Both the position numbers and the translations under genes were made by a program. A stretch of DNA of 64,000 bases, taken from Rhodospirillales bacterium. Lineage in GTDB: Bacteria; Pseudomonadota; Alphaproteobacteria; SP197. Shown here piece by piece: positions 5,046 through 39,685 of this stretch; within the stretch, counting starts at the first letter, position 1, and every line of letters starts with the position of its first letter. The notes below the pieces were generated by a model. The model was not told where the DNA came from. It made no database searches and saw only the letters and a list, made by a program, of their open reading frames with translations. The DNA is taken from positions 27,325-91,324 of the forward strand of contig JACONG010000004.1 of assembly GCA_014323865.1 (NCBI GenBank). Reading direction: 5' to 3'.

Positions 5046-8000
5046 ATGACGTCTGGGGAGGCGGTCTTGGCACGACACGATCAGCAACAGGTAGACGAAC
5101 GCATCGACGAGGTGCTGGTCCTGATCGGCGAACGCTTCGCCGGTGACGCCAGCAAGGTGCAGTGTTTTGCCCGCAGCTACTTTGCCGATGTCATCGCCGA
5201 GGACATCGAGGGCGAATCGACCGAGAACCTCTACGGTGCCGTCGCCTCGCTCTGGCAGTTCATGCGCCAGCGCAAGGAAGGAGGACCGAAGGTCCGCGTC
5301 TACAACCCCAATCTCGAGCAGGACGGCTGGCAATCGACCCATACGGCGATCGAGATCGTCAACGACGACATGCCGTTCCTCGTCGATTCCGTGGTCGCCG
5401 CGCTCAACCGCATGGACATCTCCGTCCTGCTCCTGATCCACCCCATCATCAACCTCAACCGCGACGACGCGGGCACCATCGCCACGATCTACAAGCGCGG
5501 TGCGGGCGGCGAGGGCATGACTGCCGAATCGGTGTTGCATGTCGAGATCACGCAACAGCCCGAGGACCCGCGCCACGACGAGATCAAAGCGCGGCTCCAC
5601 GAGGTACTGGGCAATGTGCGGGCCTCGGTCGAGGACTGGCCCGGGATGATTGCCAAGCTCGACGAGCAGATCGCCGCGCTGAAAGACAACCCGCCGCCGA
5701 TTGATGCCGAGGACCTGGCCGAGTGTCTCGATTTCCTGCAGTGGCTCCGGGACAACCACTTCACCTTCCTGGGCCACCGCGAGTACCGCTTCGAACGGCG
5801 TGACGAGAAGGTCTTCGCCCAGATCGTCGACGATGGGAACATGGGCATCCTGCGCGCTGTGACCGATGAGAGCCGGGCGCGCCACGCTGATGCCCTGCCC
5901 GATCACTTCGCTGAGTACATCGACCGCAAGGAGCTCTTCATCATCTCCAAGGCATGGACCCGGTCCGACGTCCACCGCCCGGTCTACATGGACTACATCG
6001 GCGTCCGCCTGTTCGACGACGACGGTACGGTGATCGGCGAGCGCCGCTTCCTGGGACTCCTGACCTCGACCGCCTACAGCGCGGTGCCGTCCCACATCCC
6101 GCTGCTGCGCCGCAAGTTCAAGACGGTGGTCGAGCGCGCCGGCTTCTCGCCCGGCAGCCACAACGACAAGGCGCTCGAGCACATCCTCGACACTTTACCG
6201 CGCGACGAGCTGTTCCAGATGGATACCGACACGCTGGAGCGTATTGCGCACGGCATTCTTCACATGGAGCATCGCCAGCGCATCCGGCTGTTCATGCGTT
6301 CGGACAACTACGGCGAGTTCGTCTCCTGCCTCGTCTTCGTGCCGCGCGATCGCTACACGACCGACCTGCGCGACCGCATCAAGCAGATCCTGATGGAGGA
6401 GCTCGGCGGCGACTCGGTCGACGTCAACACGCAGCTCTCCGACGCGCCCATGGCGCGGGCCCACTACATCGTCCACACGCCGGGTGGTCAGCGCCGGGAC
6501 CGCCGCGTGCGCGACCTGGAGCAGCGCCTGGTCGTGGCCTCGCGCAGCTGGAACGATGACTTCCACGATGCGTTGATGGAAGAATTCGGCGAGGGCCAGG
6601 GCAGCACGCTGTTCCACCGCTTCGCCCATGCGATCCCGGCGAACTACAGGGACCACTTGAGCCCACGGCTGGCGGTCGCCGATGTCGAGCGCATGGAGCG
6701 CACGGTCACCGACGGCATCGCCATGAACCTCTACCGTCGGGTTGATGCCGACGACCACTCGCTGAACTTCAAGGTCTACCATGCCGGAAACCCCGTGCCG
6801 CTGTCGATCATCATGCCGATGCTGGAACACATGGGCCTCGTGGTGATTGAGGAGACGCCCTACGAGGTTGCGCTCAAGGACGAGACGGCGGTCTGGATTC
6901 ACGACTTCCACTGCCACCAGGAGTATGACTGGGAGGTCGATGTCCCGGCGGTACGCAAGCGGTTCCACGACACCTTCCGCCAAGTCTGGGCGGGCGAGAT
7001 CGAGAACGACGATTTCAATGATCTCGTGCTCGCCGGCCTCGACTGGCGCCAGGTCGTGGTGCTGCGCGCCTATGCCAAGTACATGAACCAGGCCAATGTG
7101 CCGTTCAGCCAGAGCTACATCAAGCGCACCTTGGCCGCGAACCCGACCATCGCCAAGCTGCTGATCGATCTCTTCATCGTGCGTTTCGATCCGGACAACC
7201 AGGACGGCATGGCCGAGCGCTCGGATGCGATCCGTGCCGAGATCACCGAGGCGCTCAACCAGGTCGTCTCGCTCGATGAGGATCGCATCCTGCGCCGCTA
7301 TCTCAACCTGATCGAGGCGACGCTCCGCACCAACTTCTTCCAGCTCCGCGAGGACGGCAGGCCCAAGGCCTATGTCTCCTTCAAGTTCGACAGCCAGGCG
7401 ATCGAGGAGCTGCCCGATCCCCGGCCGTGGCGCGAGATCTTCGTCTATTCGTCGCGGGTCGAGGCCGTGCACTTGCGCGGCGGTCCGGTCGCGCGCGGCG
7501 GCATCCGCTGGTCTGACCGGCTGGAGGACTTCCGCACCGAGGTGCTCGGTCTCGTGAAGGCTCAGATGGTCAAGAATGCGGTGATCGTGCCGGTCGGCTC
7601 CAAGGGCGGATTCGTGGTCAAGAAGCCGCCCTTGGAAGGCGGGCGCGAAGCGTTCCAGGCCGAAGGCATCGACTGTTACAAGACCTTCATGTCGGGCATG
7701 CTCGACATCACCGACAACATCGTCGGCGGTGAGATCGTCCAGCGCGAGCGGGTCGTGCGCCACGACGGCGATGATCCCTATCTCGTCGTCGCTGCCGACA
7801 AGGGCACGGCGACCTTCTCGGATATCGCCAACGGCATCGCACGCGACTACGGCCACTGGCTCGATGATGCCTTCGCCTCCGGCGGTTCGGCCGGCTACGA
7901 CCACAAGGCCATGGGCATTACCGCCAAGGGCGCATGGGAAGCGGTCAAGCGTCACTTCCGCGAGATGGGCAAGGACATCCAGAACGAGGACTTCACCGTC

Positions 8001-9887
8001 GTCGGTGTCGGTGACATGGGCGGCGACGTCTTCGGCAACGGCATGCTGCTCTCCGAGCACATCCGGCTGCTCGGAGCCTTCAACCATCTTCACATCTTCT
8101 GTGATCCCGATCCCGATGCTGCGGCGAGTTATGTCGAACGAGCGCGCCTGTTCGAACTGCCGCGCTCGACCTGGATCGACTACAATGCCGATCTCATCAG
8201 CGAGGGTGGCGCGATCTACGAACGCAGCGCCAAGTCGCTAGAGCTCACGCCCCAGATCAAGAAATGCTTCGGCATCAAGGCCGATCACGTCACGCCCAAT
8301 GAGCTGATCAACGCCATGCTCAAGACCGACGTCGAGCTCCTGTGGAACGGCGGCATTGGCACCTACATCAAGGCGTCCGACGAGACCCATGCCGAGGTCG
8401 GCGACCGGGCCAACGACAGCCTGCGCGTCGACGGCAGGCAAGTCGGCGCCAAGGTCTTTGGCGAGGGCGGCAATCTGGGCGCGACCCAGGCCGGCCGGAT
8501 CGAGTTCGCGCTGGCCGGCGGGCGCATCAACACCGACGCGATCGACAATTCCGCGGGCGTCGACTGCTCGGACCACGAGGTCAACATCAAGATCCTGCTG
8601 GGCGATGTGGTCGAGGCCGGCGACATGACGGTCAAGCAGCGCGACCGCCTGCTCGAGGAGATGACCGACGAGGTCAGCGATCTCGTGCTGCGCGACAATT
8701 ATCTGCAGACCCAGGCGCTGACGATCCTGGAGAACAACGCCGACATTCGCGGTGACGAGCAGATCCGCTTCATGCGTGCGGTCGAACAGTCGGGCCTGCT
8801 CGACCGTCGTATCGAGGGCCTGCCCGACGACGAGGAGCTGGCCGACTGGCGCACCCGGGGCCGCCGCTTCACCCGGCCCGAACTTTCGGTGCTGCTGGCC
8901 TACGCCAAGATGGATCTCTATCCGGCGCTGCTCGAGTCCGACCTGCCGGACGATCCTGATCTGCAGGCCGATCTCGTGCGCTACTTCCCGGTCCCGCTGC
9001 AGGAGGGTTTCCGCGACCGGATCATGAACCACCGCCTGCGGCGCGAGATCGCGGCGACTCTCACGACGAACTCCATCGTCAACCGGGCGGGCATCAGCTT
9101 CATCCGCCGCCTGGCCGAGGAGTCCGGTTACGACTTCGCCGATATTGCCCGCTCCTACACGGTGGCTCGCGACGCCTTCGCCCTGCGCGACGTCTGGCTC
9201 GCGATCGAGGCGCTCGACAACCAGGTGCCGACCACCGTGCAGACCGCGATGCTCGAAGAGACCATACTGCTGATCGAGCGCGTGACCGGCTGGATGCTGC
9301 GCCACCGCAGTCAGCCCATGGCGATCGGCGATACCGTCAGCGCCTTCCGGCCTGCCGTCATGGTGTTGCAGGACAGGCTGCCCGAGCTGGTCAGCACGTC
9401 GCGTCGACAATCCATGCAGCGCGCCGCCAAGCGCTACGAGAAGGAAGGCGTGCCCGCCGACATTGCGGCCCAGGTTGCCAGCCTGCGTACGCTGGCCGCG
9501 GTCTGCGACGTGATCGCTACCGCCGAGACGCTCTCGATCGGCGTCATCGACGTCGCCACTGTCTTCTTCGACGTCGGCGAGGAGCTCGGCACCGACTGGC
9601 TGCGCGACATGCTGGTCCGACTCGCCATCGAGGACCGCTGGGACCGCCTGGCCCAGCAGGCCCTGATCGAAGAGAGTTTCCAGCAGCAGCGTTCCATCGC
9701 CGCGGCCGTCCTCCAGGCCAACCGCGAAGGACCGGCCGACAAGGCCACCGCCGCCTGGATCTCAACCAACAAGGCGCGTGTCACGCGCGCTCGCAATGTC
9801 ATCACCGACCTGCAGAGCACCAATACCCCGGTCGACCTCGCCATGGCCTCGGTCGCCAGCCGCGCGCTGCGCGGCCTGGCGGGGTAA
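5046..9887 (+). CDS. gdhB: NAD-specific glutamate dehydrogenase, large (about 1600 aa) GdhB type
   Basis: ORF 4959..9887. It contains RGGIRWSDRLEDFRTEVLGLVKAQMVKNAVIVPVGSKGGFVVKKPP and the downstream catalytic region typical of Bac_GDH large NAD-GDHs. The start is uncertain (Met at 4959, 5046 or later). Confidence 0.85.
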   Translation: MTSGEAVLARHDQQQVDERIDEVLVLIGERFAGDASKVQCFARSYFADVIAEDIEGESTENLYGAVASLWQFMRQRKEGGPKVRVYNPNLEQDGWQSTHTAIEIVNDDMPFLVDSVVAALNRMDISVLLLIHPIINLNRDDAGTIATIYKRGAGGEGMTAESVLHVEITQQPEDPRHDEIKARLHEVLGNVRASVEDWPGMIAKLDEQIAALKDNPPPIDAEDLAECLDFLQWLRDNHFTFLGHREYRFERRDEKVFAQIVDDGNMGILRAVTDESRARHADALPDHFAEYIDRKELFIISKAWTRSDVHRPVYMDYIGVRLFDDDGTVIGERRFLGLLTSTAYSAVPSHIPLLRRKFKTVVERAGFSPGSHNDKALEHILDTLPRDELFQMDTDTLERIAHGILHMEHRQRIRLFMRSDNYGEFVSCLVFVPRDRYTTDLRDRIKQILMEELGGDSVDVNTQLSDAPMARAHYIVHTPGGQRRDRRVRDLEQRLVVASRSWNDDFHDALMEEFGEGQGSTLFHRFAHAIPANYRDHLSPRLAVADVERMERTVTDGIAMNLYRRVDADDHSLNFKVYHAGNPVPLSIIMPMLEHMGLVVIEETPYEVALKDETAVWIHDFHCHQEYDWEVDVPAVRKRFHDTFRQVWAGEIENDDFNDLVLAGLDWRQVVVLRAYAKYMNQANVPFSQSYIKRTLAANPTIAKLLIDLFIVRFDPDNQDGMAERSDAIRAEITEALNQVVSLDEDRILRRYLNLIEATLRTNFFQLREDGRPKAYVSFKFDSQAIEELPDPRPWREIFVYSSRVEAVHLRGGPVARGGIRWSDRLEDFRTEVLGLVKAQMVKNAVIVPVGSKGGFVVKKPPLEGGREAFQAEGIDCYKTFMSGMLDITDNIVGGEIVQRERVVRHDGDDPYLVVAADKGTATFSDIANGIARDYGHWLDDAFASGGSAGYDHKAMGITAKGAWEAVKRHFREMGKDIQNEDFTVVGVGDMGGDVFGNGMLLSEHIRLLGAFNHLHIFCDPDPDAAASYVERARLFELPRSTWIDYNADLISEGGAIYERSAKSLELTPQIKKCFGIKADHVTPNELINAMLKTDVELLWNGGIGTYIKASDETHAEVGDRANDSLRVDGRQVGAKVFGEGGNLGATQAGRIEFALAGGRINTDAIDNSAGVDCSDHEVNIKILLGDVVEAGDMTVKQRDRLLEEMTDEVSDLVLRDNYLQTQALTILENNADIRGDEQIRFMRAVEQSGLLDRRIEGLPDDEELADWRTRGRRFTRPELSVLLAYAKMDLYPALLESDLPDDPDLQADLVRYFPVPLQEGFRDRIMNHRLRREIAATLTTNSIVNRAGISFIRRLAEESGYDFADIARSYTVARDAFALRDVWLAIEALDNQVPTTVQTAMLEETILLIERVTGWMLRHRSQPMAIGDTVSAFRPAVMVLQDRLPELVSTSRRQSMQRAAKRYEKEGVPADIAAQVASLRTLAAVCDVIATAETLSIGVIDVATVFFDVGEELGTDWLRDMLVRLAIEDRWDRLAQQALIEESFQQQRSIAAAVLQANREGPADKATAAWISTNKARVTRARNVITDLQSTNTPVDLAMASVASRALRGLAG

Positions 9888-35621: not shown

Positions 35622-35630
35622 GGCGTCCGA

Positions 35631-35660
35631 CAGATATTCACAGATATTCACAGATATTCA
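35631..35660. repeat. Perfect 10-bp tandem repeat cagatattca x3
   Basis: Read directly from the sequence. It sits immediately after the ACAD stop, before the terminator hairpin and the IS left end. Confidence 0.9.
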
Positions 35661-35661
35661 G

Positions 35662-35695
35662 GGGCCGGTTCGAAAGGGCCGGCCCTCTTTACTTT
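35662..35695 (+). terminator. Rho-independent terminator candidate downstream of the acyl-CoA dehydrogenase gene
   Basis: GC stem gggccgg / ccggccc with a roughly 10-nt loop, followed by tctttacttt. Confidence 0.45.
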
Positions 35696-35777
35696 GGGGG
35701 ATTATAGGGAATAGTGCCATTTTCTTGTTGTCCCCGGCCCGAACTCGTCATAGGGTAGTGCCAATAGAGGACGAGCG

Positions 35778-36740
35778 ATGAGCAACAAAGCATCGGGCAA
35801 AGCCTACCGCAAGGGCATCAGCCTCAAGAAGCTGGGCAAGATGTTTCCGGACGACGACAAGGCGCGGGAGTGGCTCGAAAAGCAGATATGGCCGGACGGG
35901 CCGCACTGTCCGCATTGCGGGTCGTTCAATGTCCAGTGCGGGATCGCGCACAAGACGATGACGCATCGCTGCCGGGACTGCCCGAACCGGCCGCGTTTCA
36001 GCCTCAAGATGGGGACCATCATGCAGGCGTCGAACCTTGGCTATCGGGATTGGGCCATCGCCATCTACCTTCTGACGACGAACCTCAAGAGCGTGTCGGC
36101 CATGAAGCTGCACCGCGACTTGGAAATCTCCTATACCAGCGCATGGCATTTGGCGCACAGGCTTCGGGAAGCGTTCGCGGGCGACGCCGCCGCGCCCTTC
36201 CACGGCCCCGCCGAGACGGATGAGACCTACATGGGCGGGAAGCGGAAGAATATGAGCAAGGCAAAGCGGGCCGAGCTCAAGGAGGAAGGCGCGGGCCGGG
36301 GAACGGTGGGGAAGACCATCGTGGCCGGCGTGAAGGACCGAGAGACAGGCCAGATTGTCGCCCGTAAGGTTCCGGGAACGGACAAGCCTACGCTGCAAGC
36401 CTTCGTGCGGGAGAATGTCGAGGAAGGCGCGACGTTCTACACCGATGAGCATGGCGCTTACACCGGAATGCCGGAATACGACCACGAGGCCGTGAACCAC
36501 AGCGTCGGGGAATATGTCCGCGACATGGCACACACGAACGGCATTGCGTCGTTCTGGTCGATGCTGAAGCGGGGTTATCAGGGAACCTTCCACCACTTCA
36601 GCGAAAAGCACATGGACCGCTACATCGGGGAGTTTGCGGGGCGGCACAATATCCGCGAGGCGGACACCGAAGACATGATGGCGGCCATTGCCCGGCAGGG
36701 TGTCGGCAAGCGGCGGCGCTACGCGGACTTGATCGCATGA
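35778..36740 (+). CDS. IS1595-family transposase (N-terminal zinc-ribbon plus DDE domain)
   Basis: 320 aa. HCPHCGS...CRDCPNRPRF zinc-ribbon, ISXO2-like core, DDE-type residues; architecture and length match IS1595-family Tnp. Confidence 0.75.
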   Translation: MSNKASGKAYRKGISLKKLGKMFPDDDKAREWLEKQIWPDGPHCPHCGSFNVQCGIAHKTMTHRCRDCPNRPRFSLKMGTIMQASNLGYRDWAIAIYLLTTNLKSVSAMKLHRDLEISYTSAWHLAHRLREAFAGDAAAPFHGPAETDETYMGGKRKNMSKAKRAELKEEGAGRGTVGKTIVAGVKDRETGQIVARKVPGTDKPTLQAFVRENVEEGATFYTDEHGAYTGMPEYDHEAVNHSVGEYVRDMAHTNGIASFWSMLKRGYQGTFHHFSEKHMDRYIGEFAGRHNIREADTEDMMAAIARQGVGKRRRYADLIA

Positions 36741-37591
36741 TGCTGGCAACGGCGGAAACACCCCTGTTTGACGAGCTTGCACCATCCACTACCGTTCTGA
36801 ACGGAGACTGCCGCGAAGCCCTGAAAAGTGTCGCAGAGTCTTCTATTCAGTGTTGTGTCACGTCTCCCCCTTATTGGGGGTTGCGGGACTATGAACACGA
36901 GGCGCAAATCGGATCGGAAGATTCGCCGGTCGAGTATATTGAAAACCTTGTTGAGGTGTTTCAAGAAGTTCGGCGAGTGCTGCGGGATGACGGTCTGGTA
37001 TGGCTTAATCTCGGGGACGGATACGCTCGCAACGGCGGCACGGGTAAGCACGGCCCGAATGCCATAGTTGGCAACACGCGCAAGATGATCCAGCGCCGGA
37101 ATTGCAAGGTTCCGCCAGTCTGGGGCCTTAAGCCGCTCGACCTGATGGGCCTTCCCTGGCGGGTTGCTTTTGCGCTACAGGAAGACGGCTGGTTCTTGCG
37201 CTCGCATATTACATGGGTAAAGACTGCGCCTATGCCGGAGAGTGTTAAAAACCGGCCTACACGCTCGACCGAAGACATTTTTCTGCTGTCAGCTTCCCCC
37301 AAATATTTCTACAACTCGAATGGCGTCCGACAGGATTCCGGCGCTAACCTTCGGAACTGTTGGGTCATCGGCCCTGACGGCAATAGTGCGGGTCATCCGG
37401 CTGCGTTTCCGCGCGAACTTGCGCGGCGGTGCATATTGCTTGGTTCCCGAATCGGGGATACCGTTTTAGACCCTTTTGGAGGATGCGGAACAGCAGGGGT
37501 TGTCGCCAAAAGCTTAAGTCGCGATTCCGTTCTGGTGGAAATCTCGAAAAAGTGGAGCGACGTAATCGAGAGCCAGGTCAATGGCTCGTAA
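36737..37591 (+). CDS. DNA methyltransferase, beta-class amino-MTase (N4-cytosine or N6-adenine), SPPY motif
   Basis: Motif IV CCVTSPPYWGLRDY lies at the N-terminus and motif I VLDPFGGCGTAG at the C-terminus, the beta-class circular permutation. There is an ATGA overlap with the transposase stop. Confidence 0.8.
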   Translation: MMLATAETPLFDELAPSTTVLNGDCREALKSVAESSIQCCVTSPPYWGLRDYEHEAQIGSEDSPVEYIENLVEVFQEVRRVLRDDGLVWLNLGDGYARNGGTGKHGPNAIVGNTRKMIQRRNCKVPPVWGLKPLDLMGLPWRVAFALQEDGWFLRSHITWVKTAPMPESVKNRPTRSTEDIFLLSASPKYFYNSNGVRQDSGANLRNCWVIGPDGNSAGHPAAFPRELARRCILLGSRIGDTVLDPFGGCGTAGVVAKSLSRDSVLVEISKKWSDVIESQVNGS

Positions 37592-38144
37592 GGACGGCTC
37601 GAAGGCGCGCATCCTCAACTACTTTCTGGCCAATCCCGGAAAGGTTCTACAGTCGCAGGACATTCAGGAAGCAAGCGGCGGCGCGGTCGAATGGGCGCGG
37701 CGCTTGCGCGAATTGCGCTCGGCAGGCTGGCGCATTCTCACCACGAATGACCGAGCAGGCTTGAAGCCTGGCGAATACATCCTGGAAGACCCGACACCGC
37801 CGCCGCAATATCGCTTTGAGTGCCCTATATCTAAGCGGCTGCGTGCGGAGGTCTTTGAGCGAAACGGGATGACCTGCCAGATGTGTGGGATCGGTGCTGG
37901 CGATTTGACGGAAGACGGCCGCAAAGCCCGGTTGCATGTCGGCCATATCAAAGACCGCTCACACGGCGGCAGGGACGAATTGTCCAACCTTCGCGCTTTG
38001 TGCAGCGACTGCAATCAGGGGGCGAAGAACCTTGTCCAGGAGCCGCCTAGCTGGACTTGGCTGCTGGGCCAGTTGCGGCGAGCAACACAGGATGACCAGC
38101 GGGCGGCGCTCGACTGGCTCAAACGTAAATTCGGGGAGGACTGA
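37581..38144 (+). CDS. HNH endonuclease, putative restriction endonuclease partner of the MTase
   Basis: 187 aa. CQMCG...HVGHIKDRSHGG...SNLRALCSDCN is an HNH (His-Me finger) motif with zinc-binding cysteines. The N-terminus is winged-helix-like. It overlaps the MTase gene by 11 nt. Confidence 0.75.
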   Translation: MARKDGSKARILNYFLANPGKVLQSQDIQEASGGAVEWARRLRELRSAGWRILTTNDRAGLKPGEYILEDPTPPPQYRFECPISKRLRAEVFERNGMTCQMCGIGAGDLTEDGRKARLHVGHIKDRSHGGRDELSNLRALCSDCNQGAKNLVQEPPSWTWLLGQLRRATQDDQRAALDWLKRKFGED

Positions 38145-38146
38145 CC

Positions 38147-38320
38147 ATGACCATCGAGCGCCGCAAGGTGCGGTTGCGGCCGCACGGCTACCAGCCGACG
38201 AAGGCCGAGCTTGAGGCCGACATGAGCATCCGCCGCGCGGACGACTCGCGCCCGACGCCGGAGGAAGTCGCCCGCGTCGCGCTGGCGCAAGTCAGGATTG
38301 TCGAGGAGTCGCGAGATTAG
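38147..38320 (+). CDS. 57-aa hypothetical ORF, third gene of the R-M operon (function unknown)
   Basis: ATG 3 nt after the HNH stop, with a GGGGAGGA Shine-Dalgarno 7 nt upstream. Translation MTIERRKVRLRPHGYQPTKAELEADMSIRRADDSRPTPEEVARVALAQVRIVEESRD. It ends 10 nt before the right IR. It is absent from the supplied ORF track, which starts at 60 aa. Confidence 0.35.
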   Translation: MTIERRKVRLRPHGYQPTKAELEADMSIRRADDSRPTPEEVARVALAQVRIVEESRD

Positions 38321-38355
38321 CAGCCACCTTGGCACTATTCTCTATAATCTCCTTT

Positions 38356-38386
38356 TTTGCGCGTGACTCATCTTTGCGCGTGACTC
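38356..38386. repeat. 14-bp direct repeat tttgcgcgtgactc x2 separated by 3 nt, flanking the IS right end
   Basis: Read directly from the sequence. Confidence 0.9.
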
Positions 38387-38698: not shown

Positions 38699-39685
38699 AT
38701 GGGAGAGTTACTGAGTCTGGCCGGCGATAACATCCTGTCGCCGCCGATCCTGTTCTTCGCTCTCGGGTTCGTCGCCGCCCTTCTTCGTTCCGATCTCGCC
38801 ATCCCGGAAACCATCGGCAAGACGATCGCGCTCTATCTGATGTTCGCGATCGGCTTCAAGGGCGGGGCATCGCTCGCGACCGAAGGCCTCGATGTTCTCG
38901 CGCTCTGGGCCGCCCTGCTCGGCATCGCCATGAGCTTCGTCATCCCGATCGTCAGCTTCCGCTTGCTGCGCATGGTCTCGCGTCTGACACGTGTCGATGC
39001 GGCTGCGGTCTCTGCCCACTACGGTTCGGTCAGTGTCGTGACCTTCGTGACCGCGGCGAACTTCCTGGATATCGAGAACATTCCCTACGAAGCCTGGATC
39101 ATCGCCGTTCTGGCGTTGATGGAAACACCCGCGATCGTGACCGGCCTGGCATTGGCCCGCGAGCGCGGCAAGCACGGCGGCCAGGCGCTGTTCTCGACCG
39201 AGGTGCTGCGCGAGGTCCTGCTGAACGGCAGCATCGTCATGCTGCTGGGTGCCTTCGCGATCGGCTGGGCGACCGGCGAACAGGGCCTCACCGATGTCGC
39301 GCCCTTCATCGTCGATCCCTTCAAGGGTGTGCTCTGCCTCTTCCTGCTCGACATGGGGCTGGTCGCCGCGCGCCAGCTCCACAAGGCCGAGGGCATGGGT
39401 CCGTCGACGGTCGCCTTCGGTCTCTACATGCCAATCGTCGGCGGCCTGTTTGGGCTGCTGGGCGCCTGGGCCATCGGCCTTTCGCTCGGCGGCACCACGC
39501 TGATCGCTGTGCTGGGTGCCAGCGCCTCCTACATCGCGGTGCCCGCCGCCCTGCGCATGACCCTGCCCCAGGCCAACGCAGCGATCTACCTGACGATGTC
39601 GCTCGGCATCACATTCCCGTTCAACGTCCTGATCGGGATCCCGCTTTACCTTGCTGCGGCGGAGTATCTCTACGGCGTGGTCTGA
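38699..39685 (+). CDS. SbtA-family (DUF897) sodium-dependent bicarbonate-transporter-like permease
   Basis: 328 aa with about 10 TM segments. ...IGKTIALYLMFAIGFKGG... and overall length/topology are typical of SbtA/DUF897. No SbtB-like PII gene is adjacent. Confidence 0.6.
   Translation: MGELLSLAGDNILSPPILFFALGFVAALLRSDLAIPETIGKTIALYLMFAIGFKGGASLATEGLDVLALWAALLGIAMSFVIPIVSFRLLRMVSRLTRVDAAAVSAHYGSVSVVTFVTAANFLDIENIPYEAWIIAVLALMETPAIVTGLALARERGKHGGQALFSTEVLREVLLNGSIVMLLGAFAIGWATGEQGLTDVAPFIVDPFKGVLCLFLLDMGLVAARQLHKAEGMGPSTVAFGLYMPIVGGLFGLLGAWAIGLSLGGTTLIAVLGASASYIAVPAALRMTLPQANAAIYLTMSLGITFPFNVLIGIPLYLAAAEYLYGVV

Follow-up and report, generated by a model that had tools for sequence, protein, structure and literature searches.

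Transporter insertion sequences (tISs), insertion sequences (ISs) that carry passenger genes, were first defined in the IS1595 family (Siguier, Gagnevin & Chandler 2009, as cited in PMC3129680 and PMC9330008). Kobayashi's group (PMC3467074) cites the same 2009 study in connection with 'RM genes flanked by IS elements'. In 2010, Furuta, Abe & Kobayashi (PMC2853133) described restriction-modification (R-M) units that lie within inverted repeats (IRs) and are accompanied by an 8-bp target duplication, with examples from X. oryzae (a type II system) and N. gonorrhoeae. Here we analyzed a 64,000-nucleotide stretch of a Rhodospirillales bacterium contig (JACONG010000004.1, positions 27,325 to 91,324), referred to below as the window, and asked what kind of element occupies its positions 35697-38352. 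We consider it likely that this segment is an IS1595-family tIS carrying an R-M system as its cargo. Since tISs were defined on the IS1595 family and R-M units within IRs have already been described, the window element belongs to a known kind and is not a new one.

The window element has in common with IS1595 tISs of the ISNwi1 subgroup a transposase composed of a zinc ribbon and a DDE domain, short IRs, and passengers placed downstream of the transposase gene inside the IRs. It differs in lacking both a target-site duplication (TSD) and the presumed catalytic Glu, whereas its relatives make 8-bp TSDs. The units described in PMC2853133 likewise consist of R-M genes inside imperfect terminal IRs, and the N. 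gonorrhoeae unit contains a COG3677 protein, a homologue of IS1/IS1595-type transposases. However, those units are single cases with no transposase or a degenerate one, for which mobilization in trans was left open. In contrast, the relatives of the window element possess a full transposase, occur as multiple near-identical copies and form one lineage with interchangeable cargos.

Anatomy of the element and mobility of homologous units

The element measures 2,656 bp and consists of 23-nt terminal IRs enclosing four co-oriented genes. Its limits (35697-38352) are set by the IR arms, placing the left end one base beyond the coordinate given in an earlier note on this DNA. The left IR (IRL; GGGGATTATAGGGAATAGTGCCA, 35697-35719, + strand) and the right IR (IRR; TGGCACTATTCTCTATAATCTCC, 38330-38352, + strand) are complementary at 21/23 positions (91%), in agreement with the imperfect repeats of about 21/23 reported in that note, the left arm being one base longer. 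Together they represent the strongest inverted repeat that a repeat search returned for the region. A degenerate IR pattern occurred at only these two sites in the 64-kb window, compared to an expectation of 0 derived from 100 shuffles. IRL bears the end motif GGnnATTAT, and its sequence recurs without change in the two IRs of L118 (related loci are designated by L numbers) and at the right ends of L123 and L085 as their IRs. The IRs are not a chance match. The ORF map also bore out four co-directional genes with ATGA or overlapping junctions, as the earlier note had described: the transposase and methyltransferase (MTase) genes overlap in an ATGA, the MTase and HNH endonuclease genes overlap by 11 nt, and a 2-nt gap separates the HNH gene from the small terminal gene, orf57.

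The first gene (35778-36740, + strand) encodes a 320-aa IS1595-family DDE transposase with an N-terminal zinc ribbon, as indicated by matches to PF12762 (1.3e-37), PF12760 (3.2e-09) and NF033547 (4.8e-52; cut-off 75 bits). The ends of the element read GGGGATTAT and GGAGATTAT, and an E/K pair spaced 7 residues apart as well as E285-x3-R289 are conserved among related transposases. The end motif and the catalytic signature look like those of the ISNwi1 subgroup of IS1595, of which GGnnATTAT ends and a DDEK+ER4 signature are traits. A tblastn search of plasmids with the transposase returned only relatives with <45% identity that were labelled generically as 'IS1595 family transposase', and hence no ISfinder name was transferable. 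Megablast of the whole element against the PLSDB plasmids gave no match.

The left end bears sequences that may control transposase expression. Inward of IRL lies a promoter-like element (35728-35756, + strand) composed of a -35 hexamer (TTGTCC, 35728-35733), a 17-nt spacer and a -10 hexamer (TAGGGT, 35751-35756), although a consensus promoter scan called no promoter in the window. In the left-end alignment the -35 of relatives reads TTGACC or TTGACG, so that the window copy carries an A>T change. The IR core is found again at a subterminal position (ATAGGGTAGTGCCAAT, 35750-35765, + strand), where it overlaps the -10 and sits just upstream of a Shine-Dalgarno (SD) sequence, GAGGA (35767-35771). 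Across the left ends of L085, L118, L120, L086 and L092, this internal copy co-varies with the IR core (GTGCCA, GTCCCA or TTCCA), a pattern suggestive of another binding site for the transposase, through which autoregulation could be conferred.

Homologous units of transposase, MTase and HNH demonstrably transpose as wholes elsewhere. Within a set of 80 HNH loci, namely those listed from a scan of GTDB genomes, for which frequencies are indicative only, an IS1595 transposase was located just upstream and in the same orientation in 19. Such units are found in many phyla, with IRs that start GG(G/N)(A)ATTAT and with perfect 8-bp TSDs. A Pseudohongiella metagenome-assembled genome (MAG) harbors two copies of a 3.17-kb unit (L021 and L035), and a Dehalococcoidia MAG harbors two copies of a 2.57-kb unit (L044 and L047); the copies of each pair are 99.9% identical and occupy different sites. 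All four have perfect IRs starting GGGAATTAT, and each is bordered by its own 8-bp TSD (CAATATTT for L021, TAAATTTG for L035, AATATTAT for L044 and AAATAATT for L047). Further TSDs were identified for L012 (CAGTTTTT), L013 (TATCGAAA), L037 (CTAATTTG), L062 (CAATAAAA), L068 (AAACATTG) and L118 (ATTGCATA); in total, at least 17 related insertions display an 8-bp TSD, and the targets of relatives are mostly A/T-rich. The earlier note had viewed the window element as a single self-mobilizing R-M unit. Because relatives have been duplicated together with their own TSDs, an IS whose R-M passenger moves with it as one unit is the correct description for this kind of element, but self-mobilization is doubtful for the window copy itself, in view of a substitution in the transposase (E257A), its IRR, its promoter and its missing TSD, as discussed below.

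No 8-bp TSD surrounds the window element, the adjoining 8-mers being TTACTTTG on the left and TTTTTTGC on the right. Since related insertions do carry a TSD, this failure is specific to the window copy. A degenerate TSD was rejected as well: the best pairing of 8-mers across the two ends reached 5/8 in T-rich sequence, which does not constitute evidence. Beyond the left end, the acyl-CoA-dehydrogenase-like gene upstream is followed by its terminator hairpin at 35661-35686, and ACAGATATTC(A) is repeated exactly, three times in tandem, at 35630-35660, between the stop codon of that gene and the hairpin, and outside the IS. Beyond the right end, a 14-bp direct repeat, TTTGCGCGTGACTC, begins 4 bp from the IS (38356-38369 and 38373-38386, with a 17-bp period). 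This repeat is missing from the ends of related ISs and lies upstream of a gene for an Sbt_1-family membrane protein (38699-39685), for which it may serve as an operator. The 10-bp threefold repeat and terminator on the left, the 14-bp repeat on the right and the lack of a clean TSD had all been recorded in the earlier note, and each was confirmed.

A cargo slot within a conserved backbone

We compared the window element with L085 at the DNA level. The two are homologous over element positions 1-1044, a segment that takes in IRL and continues through the end of the transposase stop codon (86.9% identity), and again over positions 2439-2656, from 12 nt before the orf57 ATG to IRR (87.6% identity), while the sequences in between are unrelated. 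The same breakpoints were observed for L086 and L090. The cargo slot extends from the transposase stop codon (ATGA) to the ribosome-binding site of orf57. In several elements with unrelated cargo, the ATG of the GCATGA that ends the transposase gene is the start codon of the first cargo gene.

The contents of this slot vary widely. L085, whose transposase is 88% identical to that of the window, carries a 337-aa N6_N4 MTase together with a 273-aa unknown protein (TSD TTCATAG(G)). The cargo of L086 (transposase 83%) is an MTase-like gene with an Eco29kI/GIY-YIG nuclease, in a copy that has lost its IRL, and that of L090 (79%) is a KilA-N/P63C gene split by IS21 (TSD TTTGGAAC). L120 (73%) holds a C5 MTase and a GIY-YIG nuclease (TSD CTTTTTTG), and L124-128 (70%) hold an MTase and a 164-aa unknown protein in at least 3 different flanks. 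Further cargos comprise an MTase with Eco29kI in L098 (60%; TSD TTTTATTT), an N6 MTase with an EcoRI-like nuclease in L101 (58%), an N6_N4 MTase with an MvaI/BcnI nuclease in L123, whose transposase is 5'-truncated, and an N6_N4 MTase with a BglII nuclease in a second IS1595 tIS of the L092 contig. The nearest transposase relatives (70-88%) are associated with other R-M systems, and more distant ones with EcoRI-like and BglII nucleases. The view of the earlier note, that tISs with R-M cargo are uncommon, does not hold for this lineage, in which R-M is the commonest identifiable cargo among the sampled relatives of the window transposase.

Transposase similarity and cargo similarity were discordant. 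Whereas the transposase of L085 is 88% identical and its cargo different, L013 combines a transposase of 58-60% identity with an HNH of 79% identity. L118, with a transposase of 72% identity and an IR identical to the window IRL, has a C5 partner of the HNH. Given this discordance, cargo exchange by recombination in the shared backbone arms would be the simplest inference.

Some cargos contain additional genes or insertions. A gene for a Vsr mismatch endonuclease follows the HNH gene in L042 (7577-8182) and L062 (7386-7970), which fits a C5 MTase partner, and L037 bears an extra cargo gene for a SocA/Panacea antitoxin-domain protein (8007-8576). Nested insertions were likewise seen: the IS21 (IstA/IstB) that splits KilA-N/P63C in L090 spans 5917-8550, and an IS66 occupies 5654-7420 of L092.

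The last gene of the window element, orf57 (38147-38320, + strand), encodes a conserved small protein of 57 aa and ends ~10 bp ahead of IRR. Searches of Pfam, NCBIfam, PADLOC and PHROGs yielded no family match. Its own family comprises 203 representatives at 50% clustering, almost all of them 40-100 aa in length, and the ratio of nonsynonymous to synonymous substitution rates (dN/dS; 0.21-0.44) indicates that it evolves as coding sequence. Iterative searches detected orf57 homologues only beside these transposases or their remnants. In L095-97, orf57 follows the transposase gene by 31 bp within a cargo-less IS of 1,255 bp (TSD CTGCTGTC), and in other elements it is found directly before the right IR behind at least 6 unrelated cargos. 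Because it is present in cargo-less copies as well as behind unrelated cargos, orf57 is a backbone gene of the IS and not part of the R-M cargo, to which the earlier note had assigned it. A role as the controller (C) protein of the R-M system was considered and ruled out, since orf57 is present in a cargo-less IS (L095) and in an element with non-R-M cargo (L090).

We tentatively propose, with somewhat less confidence than we would place in an even bet, that these elements constitute an undescribed ISNwi1-like cassette-shuttle lineage of IS1595 that is spread across phyla. Its fixed backbone would comprise IRL, the promoter, a transposase gene ending in GCATGA, the SD, the ~57-aa gene and IRR, with at least 6 unrelated R-M nuclease folds (HNH, Eco29kI/GIY-YIG, EcoRI-like, MvaI/BcnI, BglII and unknowns) as well as other genes swapped at the same two breakpoints, and the small protein would represent a new accessory or regulator of transposition. 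What may be new, at the level of the lineage, is a backbone that stays fixed and has a conserved small gene at its end, together with its precisely bounded slot and the variety of R-M systems that occupy it.

The methyltransferase and HNH endonuclease cargo

The first cargo gene (36737-37591, + strand) encodes a 284-aa beta-class SPPY DNA MTase that matches PF01555 (5.6e-43) and PADLOC MTase_II (1.6e-84); its start codon is the ATG within the conserved GCATGA. The beta-class motif order is evident from TSPPY (aa 42-46), which precedes a DPFGGCGT located towards the C-terminus. Motif IV (SPPY) preceding motif I (FxGxG) is a feature shared with type II R-M systems that combine an HNH (beta-beta-alpha-Me) nuclease with a beta-class MTase of the M.PvuII type. 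Among solved structures, the nearest relative was 2zie (4.2e-21); the N4-cytosine MTases 8s9m and 1boo also matched, as did the N6-adenine enzymes CcrM and DpnA. The predicted target base is probably N4-cytosine. The MTase is 78-85% identical to its nearest relatives and retains the motifs. GC content is ~0.56 across the MTase gene, compared to 0.62-0.66 in the transposase gene, the HNH gene and the flanks, the flanks by themselves ranging from 0.63 to 0.66.

The second cargo gene (37581-38144, + strand) encodes a 187-aa protein in which a winged helix-turn-helix (wHTH) is joined to an HNH domain, a predicted type II restriction enzyme. It matches PF01844 (2.2e-10) and, over most of its length, PADLOC REase_II models (4e-08 and 1.4e-06), and it keeps all 49 residues that are invariant in the family alignment, including CxxC...CxxC and H/N/N. 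The M-then-R gene order, the overlapping gene ends and the zinc-binding CxxC...CxxC core are held in common with known HNH/beta-class R-M systems. The window HNH differs from these in having no close characterized enzyme in searches of solved structures, and in belonging to a family that is mostly partnered with short C5 MTases (67/77). An AlphaFold2 (AF2) model (mean predicted local distance difference test score, pLDDT, 78.5) has a winged helix at the N-terminus, followed by the HNH core and, at the C-terminus, by a pair of helices. When solved structures were searched by sequence, matches were limited to the HNH core (IscB, McrA and Cas9), and the best hit of a fold search was EcoKMcrA, a modification-dependent enzyme, with a weak template modelling (TM) score of 0.32. 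As these matches cover only the generic HNH core, no specificity was predicted.

The HNH protein has >1,800 homologues. The 80 listed loci come from many bacterial phyla and from two ammonia-oxidizing archaea. In 76 of them a co-directional ORF ends at the start of the HNH gene, and all 76 of these ORFs encode DNA MTases; counting the window, 67 partners are short C5-cytosine MTases and 9 are N6_N4 MTases. We read the two genes as a type II R-M pair with predicted, site-specific activity. No transposase was found nearby in 61/80 loci, for example L003 (HNH 85%), and the MTase/HNH pair is also encoded on a 14-kb Acidithiobacillus plasmid. The earlier note had named a pair fixed in relatives without transposase and IRs as a finding that would speak against its reading. 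The pair does occur alone, in the 61 loci just mentioned; this occurrence identifies it, as judged from locus comparisons, as a captured and independently existing module, and it is not evidence that the IRs are fortuitous.

In a rough neighbor-joining tree, the nucleases with N4 partners, including that of the window, form one clade. Together with the lower GC content of the MTase gene, this clustering is consistent with a swap of the MTase partner (C5 to N4) inside the cargo. The dN/dS values of HNH and MTase (0.05-0.18) indicate strong purifying selection, and the R-M pair of the window copy is probably still active.

Other members of the HNH family extend this picture. L041 and L067, from Nitrosopumilus and Thaumarchaeota MAGs, encode HNH homologues partnered with C5 MTases, and the R-M module therefore crosses the boundary between bacteria and archaea. 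Among the bacterial carriers, many MAGs have names that refer to sponges (Poriferihabitaceae). On a plasmid of Pandoraea oxalativorans (L084; NZ_CP011518.2, 75122-76480), a 452-aa protein annotated as Vsr directly follows a C5 MTase and includes a homologue of the wHTH-HNH protein (35% identity, with 76% of the query aligned); this protein appears to be a fusion of Vsr with the HNH nuclease.

Probable decay of the window copy and alternative readings

An intact IS1595 catalytic triad consists of D, D and E/N/H, followed 7 residues on by K/R. The window transposase retains D148, D223, K264, E285 and R289, but its position 257 is Ala (GCG, 36546-36548). Of the 120 closest among roughly 8,000 transposase homologues, 118 have E at this position and one has D, and A is confined to the window copy; Glu is also present in all 10 aligned tIS transposases, and in relatives it sits 7 residues ahead of the invariant Lys. 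The right end is altered too. IRR reads ...ATTCTCTATAATCTCC, whereas seven relatives in the right-end alignment read ...ATTC(C/G)CTATAATCCCC, with all 7 ending in CTATAATCCCC. Of the two C>T changes that distinguish IRR from the consensus of relatives (38341 and 38350), one lies inside the terminal GGGG that is invariant in 7/7 relatives. Taken together, the E257A substitution, the two IRR substitutions, the weakened -35 and the missing TSD make it likely that the window copy has been immobilized. It is most likely an old insertion, situated in the T-rich tail of a terminator, in which the functions for transposition are being lost and the R-M pair persists; such retention would be expected if the cargo is addictive or useful. 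The IRR substitutions are both C>T transitions and lie in C-runs of the + strand; whether they arose by deamination after cytosine methylation by the MTase of the element turns on the target motif of that enzyme.

Later stages in the decay of the same IS type are represented by other loci. L121 (5890-6225) is a remnant composed of the 3' end of the HNH gene, orf57 and IRR; L123 (3841-4040) has a 5'-truncated transposase gene followed by an intact R-M pair, orf57 and IRR; and L086 (2440-2510) lacks IRL.

Several points weigh against the account given so far. That Glu257 is the third catalytic residue we assume from its conservation and from the DDEK+ER4 signature of the family. The dN/dS of the transposase relative to L085 is 0.16, which speaks against a long period of relaxation, and the E257A change, which involves a single base, could be an assembly or population variant. 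Insertion of the window copy by transposition at exactly these ends is suggested by its relatives, and no TSD accompanies it. No second copy of the element was found in the window or in the 112.7-kb contig, and the exact IR pattern had 0 matches in Joint Genome Institute (JGI) metagenome contigs, even though the window itself derives from a JGI sample, metagenome 3300017829, where it lies on contig Ga0189853_1000014. An empty site was not retrieved: for the flanking genes, the source contig alone yielded exact copies, the scans of genomes and metagenomes having been directed at the element itself. With regard to individual proteins, the AF2 model of orf57 is poor (pLDDT 62, predicted TM score 0.27), and for the HNH no close solved or characterized relative emerged from the sequence and fold searches of solved structures, the PADLOC REase_II matches being modest.

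These considerations bear on three alternative readings. The first difficulty is whether the window copy might still be an autonomously active tIS, with Ala257 tolerated or a variant, harmless IRR changes and a TSD eroded within a T-rich tract. All four ORFs are full length, the transposase dN/dS of 0.16 matches that of intact relatives, 21/23 IR positions are kept, and the T-rich flanks resemble the targets of relatives (L120 resides in CTTTTTTG, and the final C of the window element is followed by TTTTTTG). We nonetheless regard this as unlikely, since Ala257 has no counterpart among the 120 homologues (118 E, 1 D), the terminal GGGG altered in IRR is otherwise invariant (7/7), the -35 has changed from TTGACC to TTGTCC, and the element is present as a single copy with no TSD. 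The arrangement could alternatively reflect a plain IS1595 that came to lie beside a resident R-M operon, with a fortuitous right 'IR'. The frequency of loci at which the pair lacks a transposase or IR (61/80, L003 with its 85% HNH among them) and the missing TSD around the window unit would both suit such a juxtaposition. It is effectively refuted by the right end itself, where orf57 and IRR are 87.6% identical to those of L085 and homologous to the right ends of L086, L090, L118, L120 and L123, by the recurrence of the order transposase-MTase-HNH-orf57-IRR with TSDs around the whole unit and paired copies (99.9% identity) in single genomes, and by the chance expectation of 0 for the IRs.

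Whether the HNH protein is a classical type II enzyme deserves separate comment, as it might instead be a McrA-like modification-dependent nuclease, a nicking or repair nuclease, or a nuclease that acts in mobility. EcoKMcrA is its best structural match, the sequence matches (IscB, McrA and Cas9) are confined to the HNH core, and some homologues are labelled McrA by JGI. However, the gene has a near-obligate position after an MTase gene (76/80 listed loci), irrespective of whether the MTase is of the C5 or N4 type, and a methyl-dependent enzyme would be self-toxic beside such a partner. A function as repair partner is contradicted by the cargos of L042 and L062, in which a separate Vsr follows the HNH, and a function in mobility by the 61/80 listed homologues with no transposase nearby. 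As the PADLOC REase_II models also match over most of its length, we consider a non-type II function quite improbable, and return to the reading of the window element as a tIS with a type II R-M cargo and decaying transposition functions.

Under this reading, elements of this kind would function as follows. Since the four genes overlap or abut, they would probably be transcribed together, in an operon where M precedes R. The transposase would bind the IRs and insert the complete unit at A/T-rich targets of 8 bp. Once in place, the R-M pair would restrict unmethylated incoming DNA, and loss of the unit would be penalized by post-segregational killing, thereby stabilizing the insertion. Related elements would in turn exchange cargo, presumably by recombination within their shared backbone arms.

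In larger defence-cargo transposons and integron cassettes, too, the mobility backbone is conserved, and unrelated defence or addiction genes are found at a defined position. In contrast to integrons and Tn7, the lineage of the window element has no integrase, attC, attI or Tn7-type machinery, and its slot is a spacer of ~30 bp that separates the two backbone genes in a 1.25-kb IS. For annotation, the message is that the four genes make up one element, that the small ORF is to be counted with the IS rather than with the R-M system, and that this copy is probably immobile while its R-M system is predicted to be probably active. R-M systems have been argued to be selfish mobile units, yet clear examples of a minimal transposon with such a cargo are few; in the present lineage, complete R-M pairs are found time and again on a backbone of 1.25 kb. 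With exact boundaries and both intact and decayed siblings, these elements offer a simple system for studying whether R-M addiction stabilizes IS insertions, how cargo is exchanged and what role orf57 plays.

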